The notes: generated by a model not told the origin, from the sequence alone. A DNA stretch of 24,000 nt from an uncultured archaeon (GCA_964353755.1 CAYGYC010000015.1:1-24000), one strand, 5' to 3'; positions 2,525 through 23,754 are shown, counted from the first letter of the stretch. A program made the numbers and translations.

Positions 2525-3277
2525 ATGGGTGAATTGCAAAAAAATCTTGAAACTAAATTAACAAATATCCAAGCGGCGATTACCACTCTCAAAGAGGAAA
2601 TACCTCGATCCATTGGACAAAATCTAATGTCCTTTTCGGATATGATCGGTGCTAAAATTGAGGATATGGAGGAATCTATTAAGAGGATTACCATTTCTTC
2701 TGGAGGAACTGCGGATCCTACTATTGGAACCGTAAAACAAGATTTAGGTGATATAAAAACAAGTATTAAAAATCTTCAAACGGCTATTCAAAGTATTAAA
2801 ATTGAGGCAGCTGCTACATCACCTCATATTACACTCGCTTCACCTATTTCAGCCCCAACTATACCAAAATCGTCTTCATTACCATCGCCGCCCCCAACCG
2901 CCCCTACTACTCCGCACCTCACTCCAATTCCAGTAAGTCCTTCTCAACCCGCTCCAGCTCCTGCACGCGTAAGTAGTGTCAAAACAACTCCTTCATCTTC
3001 TGCCCCAGCAGAAGGACCCGGATCAGATGTTACCAATTTATTAGATACGATTAAGCAAAAAGCAAAAAGTGGTCTCAGTGCCATTGCTTTGGCAAATGAA
3101 ATGGAACAGATACGCGACACCATAGTTAAGGTATATCGCTGGCACCCGGCTTTATATGAATTAGCAACCTTTGCCCGCCGATTGAAAAAATTCCCGGAAG
3201 GAGCCCCACCGGACGCCGAACTTTTTAACTTATTATTAGAGAAAGTTGAGGAATGGAAAAATCGAGTGAGCGGTTAA
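2525..3277 (+). CDS. hypothetical protein: N-terminal coiled-coil, Pro/Ser/Thr-rich linker, C-terminal helical domain
   Basis: 250-aa ORF with no competing ORF. The N-terminus is heptad-like (LETKLTNIQAAITTLKEEI..IKNLQTAIQSIKIE). A low-complexity linker follows (SLPSPPPTAPTTPHLTPIPVSPSQPAPAPA). The C-terminal segment is WHPALYELATFARRLKKFPEG. I recognise no family. Confidence 0.6.
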   Translation: MGELQKNLETKLTNIQAAITTLKEEIPRSIGQNLMSFSDMIGAKIEDMEESIKRITISSGGTADPTIGTVKQDLGDIKTSIKNLQTAIQSIKIEAAATSPHITLASPISAPTIPKSSSLPSPPPTAPTTPHLTPIPVSPSQPAPAPARVSSVKTTPSSSAPAEGPGSDVTNLLDTIKQKAKSGLSAIALANEMEQIRDTIVKVYRWHPALYELATFARRLKKFPEGAPPDAELFNLLLEKVEEWKNRVSG

Positions 3278-9533: not shown

Positions 9534-9941
9534 ATGAGTCTGCGTCCCGGTGGTGTAACTGGAATCGCCGTTCTCTTCTTAATCGCTGCAGCTATTTTTC
9601 TTGTACTCGGCGTTATTTGCGCCTTTGCAACAGCCACGGCAATGCTTTTCTGGTTTAATAATATTCACGGTCTCATTGCAGGATCGTTTATTGGTCCTTT
9701 CTATGTCGATCATCTCATGGACAATCTATTAAACCCTACTACCTGGGTCATTGCAGGGGTTATTTTCATCGGTATCGGCGCTGCTGACATTCTTACTTTC
9801 TTGGGATTGCTGAAATTAAAGAAATGGGGCTATTGGCTGTGCATTATTATCTCTATTCCGCTGATTATAGTGATCGTCGGCATAATCTTTATTTGGTACC
9901 TGCGTAAAGATGAAGTGAAAGCTGCTTTTGATATTAAATAA
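9534..9941 (+). CDS. small integral membrane protein (about 4 predicted TM helices), unknown function
   Basis: 135-aa ORF with four long hydrophobic stretches (IAVLFLIAAAIFLVLGVICAF, WVIAGVIFIGIGAADILTFLGLL, WLCIIISIPLIIVIVGIIFIW). It is GC-richer than its AT-rich flanks. Confidence 0.6.
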   Translation: MSLRPGGVTGIAVLFLIAAAIFLVLGVICAFATATAMLFWFNNIHGLIAGSFIGPFYVDHLMDNLLNPTTWVIAGVIFIGIGAADILTFLGLLKLKKWGYWLCIIISIPLIIVIVGIIFIWYLRKDEVKAAFDIK

Positions 9942-14276: not shown

Positions 14277-15326
14277 ATGGATCAATCCCAAGCTACCCTA
14301 CCATGCGATAAAGTTCGTGAGATTCTTATTAAATCTGAAGACACCACGAATCCGCAATTCGGTCTAAATCCAAATCAACGTCCTATCGAAGAACTTTTCA
14401 ATTATGGTATTGTTAATCTCAATAAACCTGCAGGTCCCACCTCCCATGAAATAACCGCTTGGGTAAAAAAAATATTACATATTGACAAAGCAGGGCATTC
14501 CGGCACCCTAGACCCCGGGGTAACGGGTATTTTACCAGTGGCGTTAGGTCGTGCTACCAAAATCCTGAATTCCCTTCTTACCGCAGGGAAAGAATATGTT
14601 TGCATCATGCATCTTCACAATTCTGCCACGAAAGACCAAGTTCTTACCACTATCAAAGAATTTATTGGACCCATCTACCAGAAGCCGCCTGTCCGCTCTT
14701 CGGTTAAACGCCAATTGCGAATTCGCCATATCTACTATCTAAACGTGCTAGAATACCTTGATAACGACATTTTATTCCAAGTCGGTTGCGAAGCGGGCAC
14801 GTATATCCGAAAACTGTGTTATGATATTGGGGAAGCCGTCGGGTCAGGCGCCCACATGCGAGAACTCCGCCGGACGCGGGTCGCGACTTTTCGCGAGGAT
14901 GAAACCCATGTCAGTCTCCATGATTTGCTCGATGCCTATACTTTCTGGCAAGAGCAAGGAGAACAGAAATATTTACGTAAATGTATTCAACCCATTGAAT
15001 TTGCCATGCGCCAATTCCCCAAAATTTATGTGCGCGATTCAGCCATCGATGCGATCTGCCATGGCGCTAGTTTAACAGCCCCTGGGATCCTGAAAGTGAG
15101 TACGGGCATTCAACCCAAGACGGAAGTCGCCATTCTCTCCTTGAAAGAGGAACTGATTGCTACGGGCGTGTCCCTCTCGACCAGTAACCAAATAATTGAA
15201 GCCGACCACGGGATTATTGTCCGCGTTGATGCCGTCCTCATGAAGCCCGATACCTATCCGCCGTGGTGGAGCTATAAAAAGAATCGCGAAAAAAAACCTG
15301 AACCCTCCGGCGCCAGCCATGACTGA
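14277..15326 (+). CDS. cbf5: H/ACA RNP pseudouridine synthase Cbf5 (TruB family, with PUA domain)
   Basis: Contains GIVNLNKPAGPTSHEITAWVKKIL and the catalytic-Asp motif HSGTLDPGVTGILPV. The C-terminal part is PUA-like (IYVRDSAIDAICHGASLTAPGI). The ORF is uninterrupted, so this cbf5 has no intron. Confidence 0.9.
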   Translation: MDQSQATLPCDKVREILIKSEDTTNPQFGLNPNQRPIEELFNYGIVNLNKPAGPTSHEITAWVKKILHIDKAGHSGTLDPGVTGILPVALGRATKILNSLLTAGKEYVCIMHLHNSATKDQVLTTIKEFIGPIYQKPPVRSSVKRQLRIRHIYYLNVLEYLDNDILFQVGCEAGTYIRKLCYDIGEAVGSGAHMRELRRTRVATFREDETHVSLHDLLDAYTFWQEQGEQKYLRKCIQPIEFAMRQFPKIYVRDSAIDAICHGASLTAPGILKVSTGIQPKTEVAILSLKEELIATGVSLSTSNQIIEADHGIIVRVDAVLMKPDTYPPWWSYKKNREKKPEPSGASHD

Positions 15327-16684: not shown

Positions 16685-16755
16685 CGTTGTAGAATTATTT
16701 ACCTAAATTCCCCACTCTAGCCTGCTTGGTTTGCTGGCTGCATTAGGTTGGGGGC

Positions 16756-17781
16756 TTATAATGCTCCAATAGAAAAATTATTTCTATCTATGATTTCAAT
16801 TTCTTTGAGGTTCGAATTGCAACTAGGACATTTTCCTTTAATTTTTACCCATTCCAGAAGATGTTCTCTATGTGCCATATTATGACATAGGGGGCATGTT
16901 CTTAGTTCTTCAAATTCATTGATTGATAAATGACATACACCACAAATACCCACAATTTTCTTACTATTGATATAAACAAAAGACTGCTCTGCTTGTTCAT
17001 GAGAGGAGTAAGAGGAATGGTCACCTTCAATTGGACTTTTCTCAAGTCCTGATTTGCAAGGTTCATCTAAAGAAAAGCATTGACAATTCCCACATAATTT
17101 TACATTTTTTAGTCCATTTTGCAAAATTGTTCTTTTCAGTTTCTTGTCAATTAAATAATAATCTGAATTTAAATATCCCAGCAAGGTAAATTCAATATCC
17201 TGAATGGTTCGTATTATACAATCCTTATGCCAAAGGCCATTAGAGAAAATATAAGTGGGAATAAAATAGAAAATCATACTATGCAGAATTTCACACGCAA
17301 CCCTGCGTACCTCAGGATTTCGATCTATTAGGCAATATATAATTCTGTGCATATATGAAGTTGCATCAAAATTTTCACCAAATTTAATTTTTTCCCACGA
17401 ATTCAAGATTTCTAATAAACTTTTTTTCCGTATTTTAGCCCGTGGGTCTCGTAATTTCACAAGAATCGGAGGGCCCTTCAAAAGGGGATCAACAAAACCT
17501 AAACAGACATAAAAAAGCCCATATTTTCGAATTTTTAAGAGTAAATAAATGTTTAAAGGAAAAAAAACTATCGTAAATCCCAGTGGAAATGGAAATAAAT
17601 ACCATCTTTGTTGAATTATATACATTATAATCGCCCATAGAAAATAACCAATTAATATTGAACAAATTATTTGATAAGAAACAAAAACTAAAACTGGATG
17701 TTGTACCTTATCCGCATTGCTAGTTATTTTTATCTCATTTCTTTTAATTCCATTAATAATTTGATAGGGCATGCTATTCAC
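16756..17781 (-). CDS. membrane-anchored protein with C-terminal RING-H2-like zinc finger
   Basis: 341-aa ORF. The N-terminus has ~3 hydrophobic helices (LVFVSYQIICSILIGYFLWAIIMYII, LFPFPLGFTIVFFPLNIYLLL). The middle has a HEAT-like segment (DRNPEVRRVACEILHSM). The C-terminus is CGVC-x12-CPLCH-x3-H-x2-H-LLEW-x6-CPSC. This follows RING cross-brace spacing, including the W and CPxC hallmarks. Confidence 0.55.
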   Translation of the reverse strand: MNSMPYQIINGIKRNEIKITSNADKVQHPVLVFVSYQIICSILIGYFLWAIIMYIIQQRWYLFPFPLGFTIVFFPLNIYLLLKIRKYGLFYVCLGFVDPLLKGPPILVKLRDPRAKIRKKSLLEILNSWEKIKFGENFDATSYMHRIIYCLIDRNPEVRRVACEILHSMIFYFIPTYIFSNGLWHKDCIIRTIQDIEFTLLGYLNSDYYLIDKKLKRTILQNGLKNVKLCGNCQCFSLDEPCKSGLEKSPIEGDHSSYSSHEQAEQSFVYINSKKIVGICGVCHLSINEFEELRTCPLCHNMAHREHLLEWVKIKGKCPSCNSNLKEIEIIDRNNFSIGAL

Positions 17782-17926
17782 TCTCGTTCACTAACAAAAT
17801 AGGAGTTGATTCAAAATAAACTCAGTCCATATGTTTCATATGTATTAAAATAAGCAAACCAAAAATAGAGAATTCGGTCCTTTTATTATGAATGAGCATT
17901 AATTACATTTGTATCCAATGATATGT

Positions 17927-18233
17927 TCATAGTTTTCCGCGCATCCAATTGACGATTTCGATAGCATCTTTCATCTCTTTAAAAGTCGGGTGATTAGTCC
18001 ATACACCTTTCGTTTCCTTCATAATTTTTTCCCAATCCATATCCAATTTTTCCGCGACAATTCTTCCATTCTCATATGAAATTTCCAATATATCACCTAC
18101 TGCAAGCTTCGTCTTTTTACGAATATCTTCTGGAATAGTAATTTGGTGCCTTCGGTCGACTTTCGTTTTTTTTCCCCAGTTTGAAAATTCGAAGCGATTT
18201 TTTCGTCGATACTTTTTCTTAAAAGGTCTTCAT
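17927..18233 (-). pseudogene. decayed AbrB/SpoVT-type (antitoxin-like) gene
   Basis: Not in the ORF track. The minus-strand frame reads TKVDRRHQITIPEDIRKKTKLAVGDILEISYENGRIVAEKLDMDWEKIMKETKGVWTNHPTFKEMKDAIEIVNWMRGKL-stop (stop at 17927-17929). It has no in-frame start codon. The only upstream ATG (18233-18231) gives MKTF-TAA, then needs a frameshift in an A8 run (18166-18173) to join. Confidence 0.5.
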
Positions 18234-18375
18234 AAATGTTTTTGCGGATTTTCCTCCTAGGAGAACCGTGAATTTACTATGTAACATTAAATTTACAAAT
18301 TCTCTAGGGTGCTGCGAGAGCATAACAGATTCTGAAACCATAATCCTTAAATATAGGATAGCCTCACTTATATCT

Positions 18376-18591
18376 ATGGCATTTACAGTAGATACAGCCT
18401 AGCTAGATTTACTTCCTAGAAAAGAAATTGTAGATTTTAAAGAAAGACCTACGTGTTCTGCTTGTGAAACGCCCATGATTATTTGTTCCCATAGTACTCC
18501 TTCAAAAGTGATTGGATTTGGAGGGATTTATTATACCGAGTATGTAGAATATACCTGCGGCGCCAGAGATTGCGTCTACTTTTTTTTATAA
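18376..18591 (+). pseudogene. zinc-ribbon ORF interrupted by an in-frame TAG, possible transposase N-terminal remnant
   Basis: My translation: MAFTVDTA-TAG-LDLLPRKEIVDFKERPTCSACETPMIICSHSTPSKVIGFGGIYYTEYVEYTCGARDCVYFFL. The CxxC..H..V.GF.G......Y.C....C..F spacing resembles zinc fingers at the N-termini of ISL3-type transposases. No transposase body follows. Confidence 0.3.
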
Positions 18592-18639
18592 ATTTACACG
18601 CTTTTGAATGAAAATTTTCGCCTAATTTATATATAATCG

Positions 18640-18679
18640 TTCATTAGTAATGAACACTAATTTTCATTAGTAATGAACA
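18640..18679 (+). promoter_or_regulatory. two copies of a 15-bp palindrome (TTCATTAgTAATGAA) next to a TATA-like box: candidate operator pair
   Basis: TTCATTAGTAATGAACA occurs at 18640-18656 and again at 18663-18679, a 23-bp offset. Each copy contains perfect 7-bp inverted arms. TTTAAATA at 18682-18689 lies ~24 nt upstream of the ATG at 18709, which suggests a leaderless or short-leader mRNA. Confidence 0.5.
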
Positions 18680-18708
18680 GATTTAAATAAATTAAATTTT
18701 GATAAAAT

Positions 18709-19926
18709 ATGATATTAAAAGAAACTTTGAGACAAGTAGTCAAATCTCAGAAATCAGAATTGCTTAGGTTTGAATACGGGGTAGAGAGAGAAAATTTAAA
18801 TGAAATAGACTTAAAACTTTCGTTTGCAATAGTGTTATCTGGGATTAGAAGGTGCGGCAAAAGCACTTTATTACACCAATTAATTAAAAAAACAACTAAT
18901 TATTGTTATTTTAATTTTGAAGATACAAGACTTATCAACTTTGAACCTGAAGATTTTGAGAAACTTAACGACATTTTTATGGAAGACAATCAAGAGTGTG
19001 AATACTATTTTTTTGATGAAATACAAAATGCCCCAAAATGGGAAATTTTTGTACGAGCTATGCTTGATAAGCAAAAAAAATTTATAATTACAGGCTCGAA
19101 TGCATCGCTACTTAGTAAAGAATTAGGGACACGCCTTACGGGTAGGCACTTGAGATACGAGCTTTTTCCATTTTCATTCAAAGAAATGTTGGTATTTACT
19201 AATAAGAAACCTTGCATAGAATCATTTGAGGAATATCTGAACAAAGGGGGCTTCCCCGATTATCTTAAATTTAATAAATCTGAAATACTTCAAGAATTAT
19301 TGAATGATATAATTGCACGAGATATTATTGTTAGACATCGGCTTAGAGAAGCAAAAACAGTAAAGGACATGGCATTGTATTTATTGACCAATGTTGGAAA
19401 AGAATTTTCCTATAATGGTTTAAAGACCCTTTTCAATTTAGGGTCAACTAATAGTGCACTATCTTTTGTTTCTTATTTTGAAGACAGCTATCTCTTATTT
19501 ACTATTCCAAAGTTTGATTATTCGCTTAAAAAGCAATTAGTCAATCCAAAAAAAGTTTATGCAATTGATAATGGCCTGTCGAATGTCAATTCAGCCTCAT
19601 TTTCTTTAGATAAAGGCAGAATGCTTGAAAATATTGTATTCTTGCATTTGAGAAGAAAATATAAGGAAATTTTTTACTTTAAAGAAAAAAATGAATGCGA
19701 TTTTCTACTGAAAGAAAAAAACCAGATAATATCTGCCATCCAAGTCTGTTATGAACTGCACGAAGATAATAAGAAGCGAGAAATTGATGGCATAATAGAA
19801 CCTATTACTAAATTTGACTTAAAAGATGGATTAATATTGACTTATAATCAAGAAGATGACTTTAATATCGCCGGCAAAAAAATACTTGTTAAACCTGTAT
19901 GGAAATGGTTGCAGGTTTCCCCTTAA
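18709..19926 (+). CDS. AAA+ ATPase of the COG1373 type (AAA_14 N-domain plus DUF4143-like C-domain)
   Basis: 405-aa ORF with Walker A (SGIRRCGKSTLL) and Walker B-like (YYFFDEIQ). The overall layout is typical of this widespread, often island-borne ATPase family. Confidence 0.8.
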   Translation: MILKETLRQVVKSQKSELLRFEYGVERENLNEIDLKLSFAIVLSGIRRCGKSTLLHQLIKKTTNYCYFNFEDTRLINFEPEDFEKLNDIFMEDNQECEYYFFDEIQNAPKWEIFVRAMLDKQKKFIITGSNASLLSKELGTRLTGRHLRYELFPFSFKEMLVFTNKKPCIESFEEYLNKGGFPDYLKFNKSEILQELLNDIIARDIIVRHRLREAKTVKDMALYLLTNVGKEFSYNGLKTLFNLGSTNSALSFVSYFEDSYLLFTIPKFDYSLKKQLVNPKKVYAIDNGLSNVNSASFSLDKGRMLENIVFLHLRRKYKEIFYFKEKNECDFLLKEKNQIISAIQVCYELHEDNKKREIDGIIEPITKFDLKDGLILTYNQEDDFNIAGKKILVKPVWKWLQVSP

Positions 19927-20038
19927 TCATTGTCTTATTTTACTAGATACCTGAATATAAAATTACAACAACTCGTATTAATCCAAACGAATTTTTAAAA
20001 AGAAATGAATGGGAAAAAGGAAAAACAATAAAAAATGT

Positions 20039-20252
20039 TACAGCGAAGCGACCTAACTGCGGAAATTCGGAGAACAACTCAATGACCATGGGGCGTAATG
20101 GCTTGAAGCGGACCATCCCACCTTCGCCCTGCTTGAGGAAATCGGGCTTCTCTTGAACGACCTGACCTGTTCGCGGATCTGTTTTACTGATGATTTCAGC
20201 GAATTGGCAGGCTACCTGTGCTGTATGCGCATGAATAATGGGGGAATAGCCG
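20039..20252 (-). pseudogene. EF-1alpha domain-III gene fragment (duplicate of 20739-20952)
   Basis: 20046-20252 matches 20746-20952 at an offset of exactly 700 bp, with one mismatch (20239 T vs 20939 C). In minus sense it encodes [71 protein letters not shown]. It has no start codon and no native C-terminus. Confidence 0.85.
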
Positions 20253-20274
20253 CTGGGGGCTCCCGAATGTCACG

Positions 20275-20628
20275 GTGATCTTCCGGGATGGTCCGAACTG
20301 GAGCATCCCGCTCCACTCGGCGGAGCCCCTTTGGATCGACATCACCAGTGACGAGCCGTATATGACGCTGGAGTTGAACTACACCATTGATGGGCAGTGG
20401 AGGGAGTTTACCATCGCTCCCCAAAGTACCCAACATTACTATTACGAGATCGAGTTTGATGTAGAGGGAGAGGTCACCTATCAGGTTAATATTGAATACA
20501 ATGGGGTCGTGGTGTGCGCGGATACGATCACCGTAGCAGGGGTGCCAGGTATTCCCTTCGGGACGTGGTGGCTTCTTGGGTGCTTAATATTAATAATAGG
20601 GTATAAAAAAAAAAGGAGATCTAAATAG
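20275..20628 (+). CDS. probable C-terminal fragment of a surface protein (beta-rich domain plus C-terminal anchor/sorting-signal-like tail)
   Basis: 117-aa ORF with a GTG start and no signal peptide. It begins 23 nt after the repeat edge. It ends VPGIPFG-TWWLLGCLILIIGY-KKKRRSK, which is a short motif, a hydrophobic helix and a basic tail. Confidence 0.4.
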   Translation: MIFRDGPNWSIPLHSAEPLWIDITSDEPYMTLELNYTIDGQWREFTIAPQSTQHYYYEIEFDVEGEVTYQVNIEYNGVVVCADTITVAGVPGIPFGTWWLLGCLILIIGYKKKRRSK

Positions 20629-20632
20629 AAAT

Positions 20633-20641
20633 AAAAAAAAA
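20633..20641 (-). terminator. T9 tract immediately downstream of the restored EF-1alpha stop
   Basis: An A9 run on the plus strand, so T9 in tuf sense. It lies 6 nt after the TAA at 20649-20647 that ends the spliced reading frame. Confidence 0.45.
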
Positions 20642-20646
20642 TTTGA

Positions 20647-22039
20647 TTATTCTTTCTTTTTCACTTCTTTCACGATGCCAACAGCCACCGTGCGGCCCAG
20701 TGCGAAGTACCCTAGGCAGTCTGGGATACTATATCGCGTACCGCAAAGCGACCTAACTGCGGAAATTCGGAGAACAACTCAATGACCATGGGGCGTAATG
20801 GCTTGAAGCGGACCATCCCACCTTCGCCCTGCTTGAGGAAATCGGGCTTCTCTTGAACGACCTGACCTGTTCGCGGATCTGTTTTACTGATGATTTCAGC
20901 GAATTGGCAGGCTACCTGTGCTGTATGCGCATGAATAACGGGGGAATAGCCGACGGCAATGGCGGTTGGGTGGTAGATGACAATGACTTGGCCAACGAAT
21001 TCGTCTACGACAGTCGGGGGATTATCCACCTTCCCGGCAACGTCGCCACGTTTGATATCTTTCACTGAAAGCCCTCGAAGGTTAAAGCCGATGTTATCAC
21101 CAGGCACTGCTTGTGGGATCTGCTCATGGTGCATATATTGTGATACGTACATCATGCACGAATCATCTCAATTGATCGGCATTCGCTCTGGACGCCGCCA
21201 GGCATGAAGATGAGTTTGTCGCCAACCTTCAGTATGCCGGTTTCGACACGACCGACGGGAACGGTGCCGACTCCAGTGATTTTGTAGACATCCTGGACTG
21301 GGATGCGGAGGGGTTTATCGGTGGGCTTGGGAGGGAGTTCAAAGGCATCTAGGGCCTCGATTAAGGTGGGACCCTTATACCAGGGCATTTTGTCGGATTT
21401 AGCCACCAAATTATCCCCTGTCCAGGCAGAGACAGGGACGAAATTGATTTTATCTGCGGGGTAGCCTACGATTTTCAAGAGGTCTTTCATTTCATTTTTG
21501 ACTTCATTGTAGCGCGCTTCTTTCCAGCTGTGGGTGTCCATTTTATTGATAGCCACGACGAGTTGGTTAATACCGAGGGTTCGGGAGAGGAAGGCGTGTT
21601 CACGGGTTTGGCCGCTGGCGGAGATACCACCTTCAAATTCTCCTTCTCGGGAGGAGACAACCAGGATGGCAGCATCAGCTTGTGAACTTCCGGTGATCAT
21701 GTTTTTGACGAAATCCCGATGACCCGGCGCATCGATCAGGGTGTAATAGTACCGTTTCGTATCGAAGCGGCGGAAAGCTAAGTCGATAGTAATTCCACGT
21801 TCTCGTTCTTCCTTGAGGCGGTCGAAGATGAAAGCAAATTTGAAAGAGGCATCTTTCATTTGCTTGGCGGTTTCTTCCATATCCCGCATTTCTCGTTCCG
21901 AGATACCACCCGTTTTAAAGAGGAGATGACCCATCATCGTGCTTTTACCATGATCGACGTGACCGATGATGATCAAGTTCAGATGCGGCTTCTTTTCTTC
22001 TTTGCCCGCTGTGGCTGCTGGCTTCTTTTCTTTGCTCAT
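20647..22039 (-). CDS. tuf: translation elongation factor EF-1alpha, split by two 32-nt BHB-type introns: join(22039..21167, 21134..20732, 20699..20647), 442 aa
   Basis: G1 motif [10 protein letters not shown]3 motif DAPGHRDF, G4 motif NKMD. The frame breaks at SIEM/HHE and at RFAVRD/MGRTVAVG. Removing 21166-21135 and 20731-20700 restores both motifs and the C-terminus [19 protein letters not shown]. Exon lengths are 873 + 403 + 53 nt, giving 443 codons. Confidence 0.85.
20700..20731 (-). other. candidate BHB intron 2 of tuf (32 nt)
   Basis: RNA sequence UAGUAUCCCAGACUGCCUAGGGUACUUCGCAC. The central 4-bp helix is GCGA (20737-20734) with UCGC (20705-20702). The bulges are UA|U and AC|U. The inner helix has 7 bp and the outer helix pairs at 6 of 7 positions. 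Confidence 0.65.
20746..20952. repeat. 207-bp direct repeat, copy inside functional tuf exon 2 (partner at 20046-20252)
   Basis: Read directly by comparing the two 60-nt-per-line blocks, which are offset by exactly 700 bp. There is a single mismatch. Confidence 0.9.
21135..21166 (-). other. candidate BHB intron 1 of tuf (32 nt)
   Basis: RNA sequence AUGAUUCGUGCAUGAUGUACGUAUCACAAUAU. The central 4-bp helix is AUUG (21172-21169) with CAAU (21140-21137). The bulges are AG|A and AU|A. The inner helix has 4+4 bp and the outer helix has 2 bp. Confidence 0.65.
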
Positions 22040-23186: not shown

Positions 23187-23588
23187 ATGCAAATGTTAAA
23201 TAAGGGAAAAGTATATGATCGAATTCTGGCAAAAATGATTCAGAAGATGAGTTGCGGAAGCGTGATGCTACTAAATAATGATGGCTTAAAAATTTCAGAG
23301 CAAACATGTGGCTTCACCGATTCAGATGGCATTTGGGGTTCTGCCAACAGCTTATTATCGGCGGGAGAACGGGCGCTCTCCGAATTGTGTCAAAGTAAAA
23401 ATCAATTTATTAATCAAATTTTTGAATCCGAGACCTTTTTTCTCTCGGTAGGGCGAGTTAACGATGATATCAGCTATGCCATTCTCTCCTCCAAAGTGAA
23501 CAAAATTTCCATGGGCATGTTGCGGTTGATTGCGCAGAATCTGAAAGATCAAGTGAAAGTGGTTGATGGCGCTTCAGCATCTCCCTAA
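23187..23588 (+). CDS. Roadblock/LC7 (MglB-like) domain protein, tentative
   Basis: 133-aa ORF with the family layout. It has a beta strand (GSVMLLNNDGLKISEQ), a helix (WGSANSLLSAGERALSEL), then INQIFESETFFLSVGRVNDDISYAILSS and a final helix. This is pattern recognition only. Confidence 0.45.
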   Translation: MQMLNKGKVYDRILAKMIQKMSCGSVMLLNNDGLKISEQTCGFTDSDGIWGSANSLLSAGERALSELCQSKNQFINQIFESETFFLSVGRVNDDISYAILSSKVNKISMGMLRLIAQNLKDQVKVVDGASASP

Positions 23589-23754
23589 GACCTGAAGAAA
23601 GAATTTTTTGAATTCGTGTCCGACATCGCGGACAGGCTAGATCAGCGGGGGCAACCCCAGCCCCACAATTCAGACAGCTGGTCCAAGGCGATAACTCTTT
23701 TAAAATATTTCAGATCAAATGTTTATTATTCTTTGCGAAAATGCACGCCATTTT

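Follow-up and report, generated by a model that had tools for sequence, protein, structure and literature searches.

Two bulge-helix-bulge mini-introns predicted in the elongation factor 1alpha gene of a Helarchaeota-like Asgard archaeon

Introduction

Archaea usually possess a single tuf gene, which encodes the translation factor EF-1alpha (elongation factor 1alpha). How can the protein be made when this gene is broken twice, each time by a short insertion that disrupts the frame and carries a stop codon? The question is raised by a 24,000-nucleotide (nt) stretch of DNA (GCA_964353755.1, CAYGYC010000015.1:1-24000), hereafter the window, which comes from a Helarchaeota/Promethearchaeota-like Asgard metagenome-assembled genome (MAG) and carries tuf on its minus strand. 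Judged from the sequence and its comparison with relatives, the locus is very likely the canonical, S7-linked tuf gene, interrupted by two mini-introns of the bulge-helix-bulge (BHB) type that would be spliced by an EndA/RtcB-type pathway and that were probably, though less certainly, gained recently.

Structure and product of the interrupted gene

All parts of the gene lie on the minus strand, starting with an ATG at 22039 that has GGAGG upstream. Exon 1 (22039-21167; 873 nt) encodes residues 1-291, comprising the GTPase domain and part of domain II. It is followed by an insertion of 32 nt (21166-21135; ATGATTCGTGCATGATGTACGTATCACAATAT) with a TGA stop in the exon 1 frame. Exon 2 (21134-20732; 403 nt) encodes residues 292-425 and is followed by the second insertion, also of 32 nt (20731-20700; TAGTATCCCAGACTGCCTAGGGTACTTCGCAC), which has a TAG stop in the exon 2 frame and splits the codon of Met426 as A|UG, the vertical bar here and below marking a junction or cut. 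Exon 3 (20699-20647; 53 nt including the TAA stop) supplies the 16 residues after Met426. Exactly this layout of three exons and two 32-nt insertions had been given in a preliminary description of the window, in which both insertions were held to break the frame and to bear stops. The open reading frames (ORFs) of the unspliced sequence bear this out, as one of 295 amino acids (aa; 22039-21152) ends at the TGA in insertion 1 and another of 147 aa (21155-20712) ends at the TAG in insertion 2.

Joining the exons produces 1329 nt that encode an EF-1alpha of 442 aa. This product aligns without gaps across both junctions with 11 Asgard EF-1alpha sequences, and the residues at the junctions, M292 H293 H294 (SIEM|HHE) and D425 M426 G427 (RD|MG), are invariant in the alignment. 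The nearest database proteins, labelled Promethearchaeota/Helarchaeota, are 80-84% identical. The spliced junctions read ATTGAG|ATGCAC (ATTGAG|ATGCACCAT) and GCGATA|TGGGCC (CGCGATA|TGGGCCGC). A repeated ATG allows the boundary of insertion 1 to be shifted by up to 3 nt; for insertion 2 the ambiguity is 1 nt. The gene occupies the conserved S7-tuf position, as it does in the sister strain L092 described later in the text and in eight relatives. The 1329-nt coding sequence (CDS) contains no further lesion, and the ratio of nonsynonymous to synonymous change (dN/dS) against L092 is 0.08; the interrupted tuf has therefore evolved under purifying selection.

BHB geometry of the two insertions

The BHB criterion comprised a central helix with 4/4 pairs, bulges of 3 nt, an inner helix of at least 4 base pairs (bp) and an outer helix, with the cut placed after the second bulge nucleotide. 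Cutting at this point by the tRNA-splicing endonuclease EndA is reportedly an established rule, credited to Marck and Grosjean in 2003 and Xue et al. in 2006. RNAfold gives a common topology at both insertions, namely a 4-bp helix between the exon and the 3' end of the intron, a 3-nt bulge and a hairpin formed by the intron itself. Motif 1 (21132-21174, minus strand) has AUUG of the exon paired with CAAU of the intron as its central helix, and the bulges AG|A and AU|A. Its inner helix is 10 bp long with one U.U mismatch, the hairpin being formed by UGAU/AUCA and CGUGCA/UGUACG and followed by CAAU-AU. It is a relaxed, HBh'-like motif. Motif 2 (20691-20745, minus strand) is a canonical hBHBh' with the central helix GCGA (exon)/UCGC (intron) and the bulges UA|U and AC|U. 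Here the inner helix is 7 bp long (hairpin AGUAUCC/GGGUACU, then UCGC-AC) and the outer, exon-exon helix is paired at 7/8 positions (UGCGGUAC / GGGCCGCA).

Both insertions thus display the BHB geometry, motif 1 in its relaxed form, and the predicted cuts coincide with the junctions at which the protein alignment restores the frame; the preliminary description of the insertions as BHB-type introns agrees with these geometries, cut sites and junctions. With position, strand and length all fixed, the criterion is satisfied by chance at a rate of 8.7e-5; for both introns jointly the chance is ~6e-8, given that their junctions can be placed in 4 and 2 equivalent ways. A loose BHB pattern is a different matter, since shuffled sequences contain an average of ~224 matches per 24 kb on both strands and the window contains at least 136 on the plus strand alone. 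Loose BHBs are common by chance, and the significance of the two motifs therefore comes from their coincidence with independently defined junctions.

Neither further copies of intron 1 or intron 2 nor any similarity between the two was found in the window and 93 other loci, which is consistent with the two introns being non-homologous. A search of the region against Rfam returned no relevant family. Other kinds of intervening element were considered and rejected: a group I or group II intron gives no Rfam match, and 32 nt are too few for a ribozyme core; an intein, or an insertion sequence (IS) or miniature inverted-repeat transposable element (MITE), is at odds with a length that is not a multiple of 3 and with the absence of other copies from the window and the 93 loci.

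A sister strain with an intact gene

The strain L092, from a Logan assembly (SRR29366204), has an intact EF-1alpha of 442 aa, P0241. It is 98.6% identical in aa to that of the window, the nucleotide identity is about 97-99%, and the synteny S7-tuf-DUF4143 ATPase is common to both. The two 32-nt blocks are precisely what L092 is missing in the alignment. The two CDSs otherwise differ at 39 nt and 6 aa.

The interrupted gene has been deposited as two unnamed NCBI products. The ORF at 22039-21152 is identical to P0242 (295 aa) and that at 21155-20712 to P0121 (147 aa), whose 90% cluster includes the intact P0241. Automated annotation had been expected to break the gene up in this way. Both products are on one NCBI contig of 26,928 nt; as this record carries both fragments, the assembly as deposited contains the insertions. 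Such misannotation, whether as fragments of 295 and 147 aa or as the 409-aa proteins described in the following text, can distort marker-gene phylogenies and estimates of MAG completeness.

Predicted splicing

In the transcript, each intron would form two 3-nt bulges around the 4-bp helix between the end of the exon and the 3' end of the intron. EndA would cut after the second nucleotide of each bulge, and an RtcB-type ligase would join the exons, with release of the 32-nt intron, probably as a circle. Only the doubly spliced mRNA would encode the 442-aa EF-1alpha; unspliced or half-spliced mRNA would give truncated products. The in silico support for a dependence of EF-1alpha on EndA/RtcB-type splicing is good, and the proposal that full-length protein from this locus requires two endonuclease/ligase events agrees with the BHBs, the stops and the frame. 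In some Asgard lineages, 92-95% of the tRNA genes contain introns (PMC11291895). When the window and the relatives were scanned for tRNA genes, intron-less tRNA-Ser was all that was found, which gives no local clue to the load of tRNA introns. The locus raises the question of how a cell that has no nucleus splices a heavily translated mRNA.

Introns at a third site in relatives

The wider clade contains tuf introns at another place. The run encoding the P-loop, GHVD|HGKS, is interrupted by an insertion of 30 nt in L081 (4956-4985), 32 nt in L084 (1538-1569) and 28 nt in L088 (2911-2938). All three are canonical BHBs in which a 5-bp exon-exon outer helix, GGCCA/UGGCC, is conserved. Two pairs of the inner helix have changed on both sides with the pairing kept, a double compensation. 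Comparable introns occur in independent JGI and ENA assemblies (L081/L082/L083, L084/L085 and L088). The closest intron-less relatives of the carriers are 93-97% identical in protein sequence. As the intron lies within GHVD|HGKS, gene callers report an EF-1alpha of 409 aa that starts with MMGHL and is devoid of the P-loop; three such proteins are in the database. A further candidate for an intron-split protein, P0243 (335 aa), was rejected, as it is ended by the end of its contig and not by an intron.

In total, 4/~27 of the sampled lineages of the clade have a tuf intron. Three different sites are used, of which 1 and 2 are occupied in the window only. The other members of the clade are collinear at both of these sites. 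Queries with exon 1 and with exons 2 and 3 against a database of 5.8 billion protein clusters found no truncated proteins of the clade that imply introns at sites 1 or 2, except those of the window itself. An alignment of clade-specific peptides with metagenome contigs gave six loci, none with an intron at site 1 or 2. A scan of genome contigs with the full-length protein was saturated by Bathyarchaeota EF-1alpha, via the universal motif HRDFVKNM, and no close relative was among the matches listed. Ten neighbouring genes, compared across the loci of up to eight relatives, contain no short insertions.

Divergence around the introns and their possible origin

The differences between the window and L092 are not spread evenly along tuf. 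Of the 39 in the CDS, nine fall no more than 20 nt from intron 2, against an expectation of about one, and four fall within the same distance of intron 1. Those around intron 2 are all synonymous, and 7/9 affect helix positions at which the window allele is paired. The window reads TTT GCG GTA CGC GAT A|TG GGC CGC ACG GTG GCT at this site and L092 reads TTC GCT GTA AGG GAT A|TG GGG AGA ACA GTG GCA. Both BHBs are the minimum free energy structure when the introns are given their native exon flanks from the window, and both are lost when the flanks are those of L092. The intron-bearing and intron-less strains thus provide a natural contrast showing what exons must do to hold an intron.

The 3' patch of tuf is ~15% diverged from L092, against 2.3% elsewhere in the gene, and it continues directly into 593 nt that are not in L092. 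These consist of a 3' fragment of a large surface-protein gene with repeat domains (20253-20633, plus strand), likewise missing from L092, and a relic of tuf. The surface-protein fragment contains an ORF (20275-20628) that ends in a C-terminal membrane anchor and KKKRRSK, and the database sequences that match it best are repeats from within proteins of 750-7600 aa. The relic, A' (20039-20252, minus strand; 214 nt), is 99% identical to positions 20739-20952 of exon 2. It lies 700 nt downstream of the original, is non-functional and is the sole other tuf sequence in the window. At five upstream variable sites the relic matches the functional gene, and at the last two (TTC GCT) it matches L092. 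It ends with a flank of the intron-free type, TTC GCT GTA A, and is there fused to the downstream sequence, with a deletion of 67 nt at a TAA microhomology.

We infer that the surface-protein fragment and the tuf patch are one block of foreign DNA that brought intron 2. The block, made up of an intron-2-bearing 3' end of tuf and its downstream neighbour, would have recombined into the resident tuf, displacing the resident 3' part, which would survive as the relic. The donor may have been an intron-bearing allele of a more distant relative, with exon flanks already adapted to the BHB. A recent gain is suggested by the patchy presence of the introns at strain level, the foreign block with intron 2 and the relic fragment of tuf. 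With less certainty, we infer that the introns arrived recently and are not a regulatory device; they are probably mobile elements or were acquired horizontally. The locus is a possible example of the spread of introns by recombination.

A broader proposal is possible but somewhat doubtful: that the protein genes of Helarchaeota-like Asgard archaea are host to actively mobile mini-BHB introns of 28-32 nt, that tuf is a preferred target and that the introns pass from allele to allele by short-tract recombination together with pre-adapted synonymous exon flanks. Its basis is the occupation of three sites in four lineages and the lack of introns from about ten neighbouring genes in eight relatives. 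If true, such mobility would amount to an ongoing gain of enzyme-spliced mRNA introns in the archaea closest to eukaryotes.

Alternative explanations

Several points weigh against recently gained, enzyme-spliced introns. The outer, exon-exon helix of motif 1 has only 2 contiguous bp (CA/UG), as the preliminary description had noted, and a broad-specificity enzyme would therefore be needed to cut it. The Asgard EndA is an (alpha-beta)2 enzyme with an L1 loop and broad specificity (PMC5829648), which fits this weak helix. Neither the EndA gene nor the RtcB gene is within the 24-kb window, the sole part of the genome examined. Homologues of introns 1 and 2 were not found in relatives, so the introns themselves offer no covariation test; indirect support for their structures is given by the synonymous exon changes that build the helices and by the two doubly compensated pairs at the third site. 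The outgroups show mixed codons at site 2, and whether the change was a gain or a loss is less than certain. The codons that build the BHB had at first been taken to be derived in the window, a view given up once the outgroup codons were found to be mixed; the direction therefore rests mainly on the relic. Finally, the gene fragments beside the locus form an unusual patchwork, which a chimeric assembly or an amplification artefact might explain, although a chimeric assembly would account only for the adjoining patchwork and not for the introns themselves.

If the introns are real, they could have been recruited as a checkpoint coupling the supply of EF-1alpha to EndA/RtcB activity, as the preliminary description had suggested. 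If an essential and highly expressed mRNA has to be spliced twice, its output could in principle become sensitive to splicing capacity, and the expression of HVO_1309 in Haloferax is affected by removal of a BHB intron from its 5' untranslated region (5'UTR; PMC7714728). No evidence for a checkpoint was found, however. Both introns are missing from a strain with a 98.6% identical EF-1alpha, no relative's fragments in the database of 5.8 billion clusters imply introns at these sites, the positions of introns vary between lineages and the marks of recombination point to recent acquisition. Presence and absence at strain level, differing sites and recombination marks are better fitted by selfish or neutral elements than by a control point, and we consider the checkpoint improbable. 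A decaying pseudogene, with a second and intact tuf elsewhere supplying EF-1alpha and splicing irrelevant, is decidedly improbable. The neighbourhood is rearranged, with a tuf relic and a foreign gene fragment directly downstream, an intron-less allele is present in the population or species, and the search for a further copy covered the window alone. A pseudogene would nevertheless have had to keep the conserved S7-tuf position seen in L092 and eight relatives, and a CDS of 1329 nt with no other defect and a dN/dS of 0.08. Nor would random insertions yield BHBs whose cuts exactly restore the frame. The exon flanks are adapted to pair, and archaea usually have the one tuf.

The two remaining explanations dispense with introns altogether. 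The insertions might be artefacts of assembly, amplification or strain mixing, given that the source is a metagenome-assembled contig, that the L092 assembly is without them and that the adjoining 593-nt patchwork, with three novel junctions (20633/20634, 20252/20253 and 20038/20039), resembles a chimera. The probability of this is very small: two unrelated 32-nt hairpins with frame-restoring BHB geometry have a chance of ~6e-8, comparable introns occur in independent JGI/ENA assemblies of relatives, and the microhomology at the junctions is only 3-4 nt, too short for a k-mer graph error. Least credible of all is programmed translational bypassing, in which the ribosome would skip the gaps in an uncut RNA. 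Insertion 1 lies between identical ATG codons that could serve as take-off and landing sites, and both insertions are hairpins of a size near that of known coding gaps. However, insertion 2 falls within a codon (A|TG) and its repeat is of 1 nt only, which leaves no matched take-off and landing pair, and the putative take-off codon of insertion 1 is not immediately followed by a stop. Splicing by an endonuclease accounts for the BHB geometry, the co-adaptation of the flanks and the introns at the third site, whereas bypassing does not. Spliced BHB introns thus appear much the most likely account of the locus.

The wider window

The window carries a cluster of ribosomal-protein, SecY, Cbf5 and S10 genes typical of archaea, and no other split gene was seen in it. 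Between S10 and tuf is an island of low GC content (~31%) at ~16700-20038, also present in L092, with an ORF of 341 aa that weakly matches a RING finger (16756-17781, minus strand) and a DUF4143/AAA_14 ATPase gene (18709-19926, plus strand). Divergence from L092 is 0.5% in the ATPase gene, compared with 2.9% in tuf. In the relatives L081, L086, L088 and L089, S10 and tRNA-Ser adjoin tuf. Further along, the L30 gene (10082-10606, minus strand) is on the opposite strand in an otherwise plus-strand S5-L30-L15-SecY operon, and the 135-aa ORF before it (9534-9941) has no Pfam match. An ORF of 250 aa between the S17 and L14 genes (2525-3277) has no credible family match. Just downstream of the ORF at 23187-23588, positions 23601-23629 show dense mismatches and a 13-nt indel relative to L092 in surroundings that are 97-99% identical. 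In L081, positions 1-2491, upstream of S7-tuf, hold a cluster of ubiquitin, E2 (UQ_con), E1 (ThiF) and RING genes, an Asgard ubiquitin-like system beside the translation operon.

Comparison with known systems

The closest precedent is a BHB intron in crenarchaeal cbf5 pre-mRNA, reportedly described by Watanabe in 2002. The cbf5 pre-mRNA of Crenarchaeota (Aeropyrum, Sulfolobus and Desulfurococcales) has a coding BHB intron that is spliced, and as of 2009 cbf5 was the sole archaeal protein gene with confirmed splicing (Yokobori 2009; PMC2738675). In 2020 it was still cited as the only mRNA BHB intron besides a case in the 5'UTR in Haloferax (PMC7714728). No report of BHB introns in EF-1alpha genes or in Asgard protein-coding genes was found in the literature searched, which does not cover all journals. 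The tuf introns resemble that of cbf5 in being short coding introns with BHBs at their boundaries, in their presumed removal by tRNA endonuclease and ligase, in patchy gain and loss and in being misread as a frameshift or split gene. They differ in their host, in there being two introns per mRNA, in belonging to Asgard rather than TACK archaea, in varying at strain level, in the third site used in relatives and in the apparent location of one intron within a foreign block. The cbf5 gene of the window itself is intact, as the preliminary description had pointed out (ORF 14277-15326, 349 aa).

BHB introns are otherwise a feature of archaeal tRNA and rRNA, where Marck and Grosjean are said to have described, in 2003, non-canonical positions and multiple introns. 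Such introns, among them those of Thermoproteales and of Atabeyarchaeia/Freyarchaeia (PMC11291895), share with those of tuf the hBHBh' or HBh' form and the cut sites in the 3-nt bulges and have a comparable minimal size, and a relaxed motif depends there too on the broad-specificity (alpha-beta)2 EndA (PMC5829648). The difference is that the tuf substrate is a translated mRNA. Splicing must as a consequence compete with ribosomes, and the parts of the helices that lie in exons are constrained by codons, which is seen in tuf as adaptation at synonymous sites.

HVO_1309 of Haloferax volcanii is likewise an mRNA substrate of the splicing endonuclease in which removal of the intron is linked to expression (PMC7714728). 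Its intron, however, is in the 5'UTR and leaves the frame intact, and the enzyme is euryarchaeal and of strict specificity. In eukaryotes, HAC1/XBP1 mRNA contains a short, frame-changing intron that is removed by IRE1 with tRNA ligase or RtcB, without a spliceosome. There the nuclease is IRE1 and not EndA, the cleavage sites are in twin stem-loops and not in a BHB, and a stress switch has been demonstrated. Bypassing elements, such as those of phage T4 gene 60 and the yeast mitochondrial byps, are short, hairpin-forming, stop-containing insertions that are absent from the protein. They leave the RNA uncut and depend on a matching pair of take-off and landing codons, and intron 2 has no such pair.

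The motif and the presumed enzymes are therefore known. The novelty lies in the gene and lineage concerned, in two introns sharing a single mRNA and in a polymorphism that is informative. To the hosts of BHB introns, tuf adds an essential, highly expressed translation factor.

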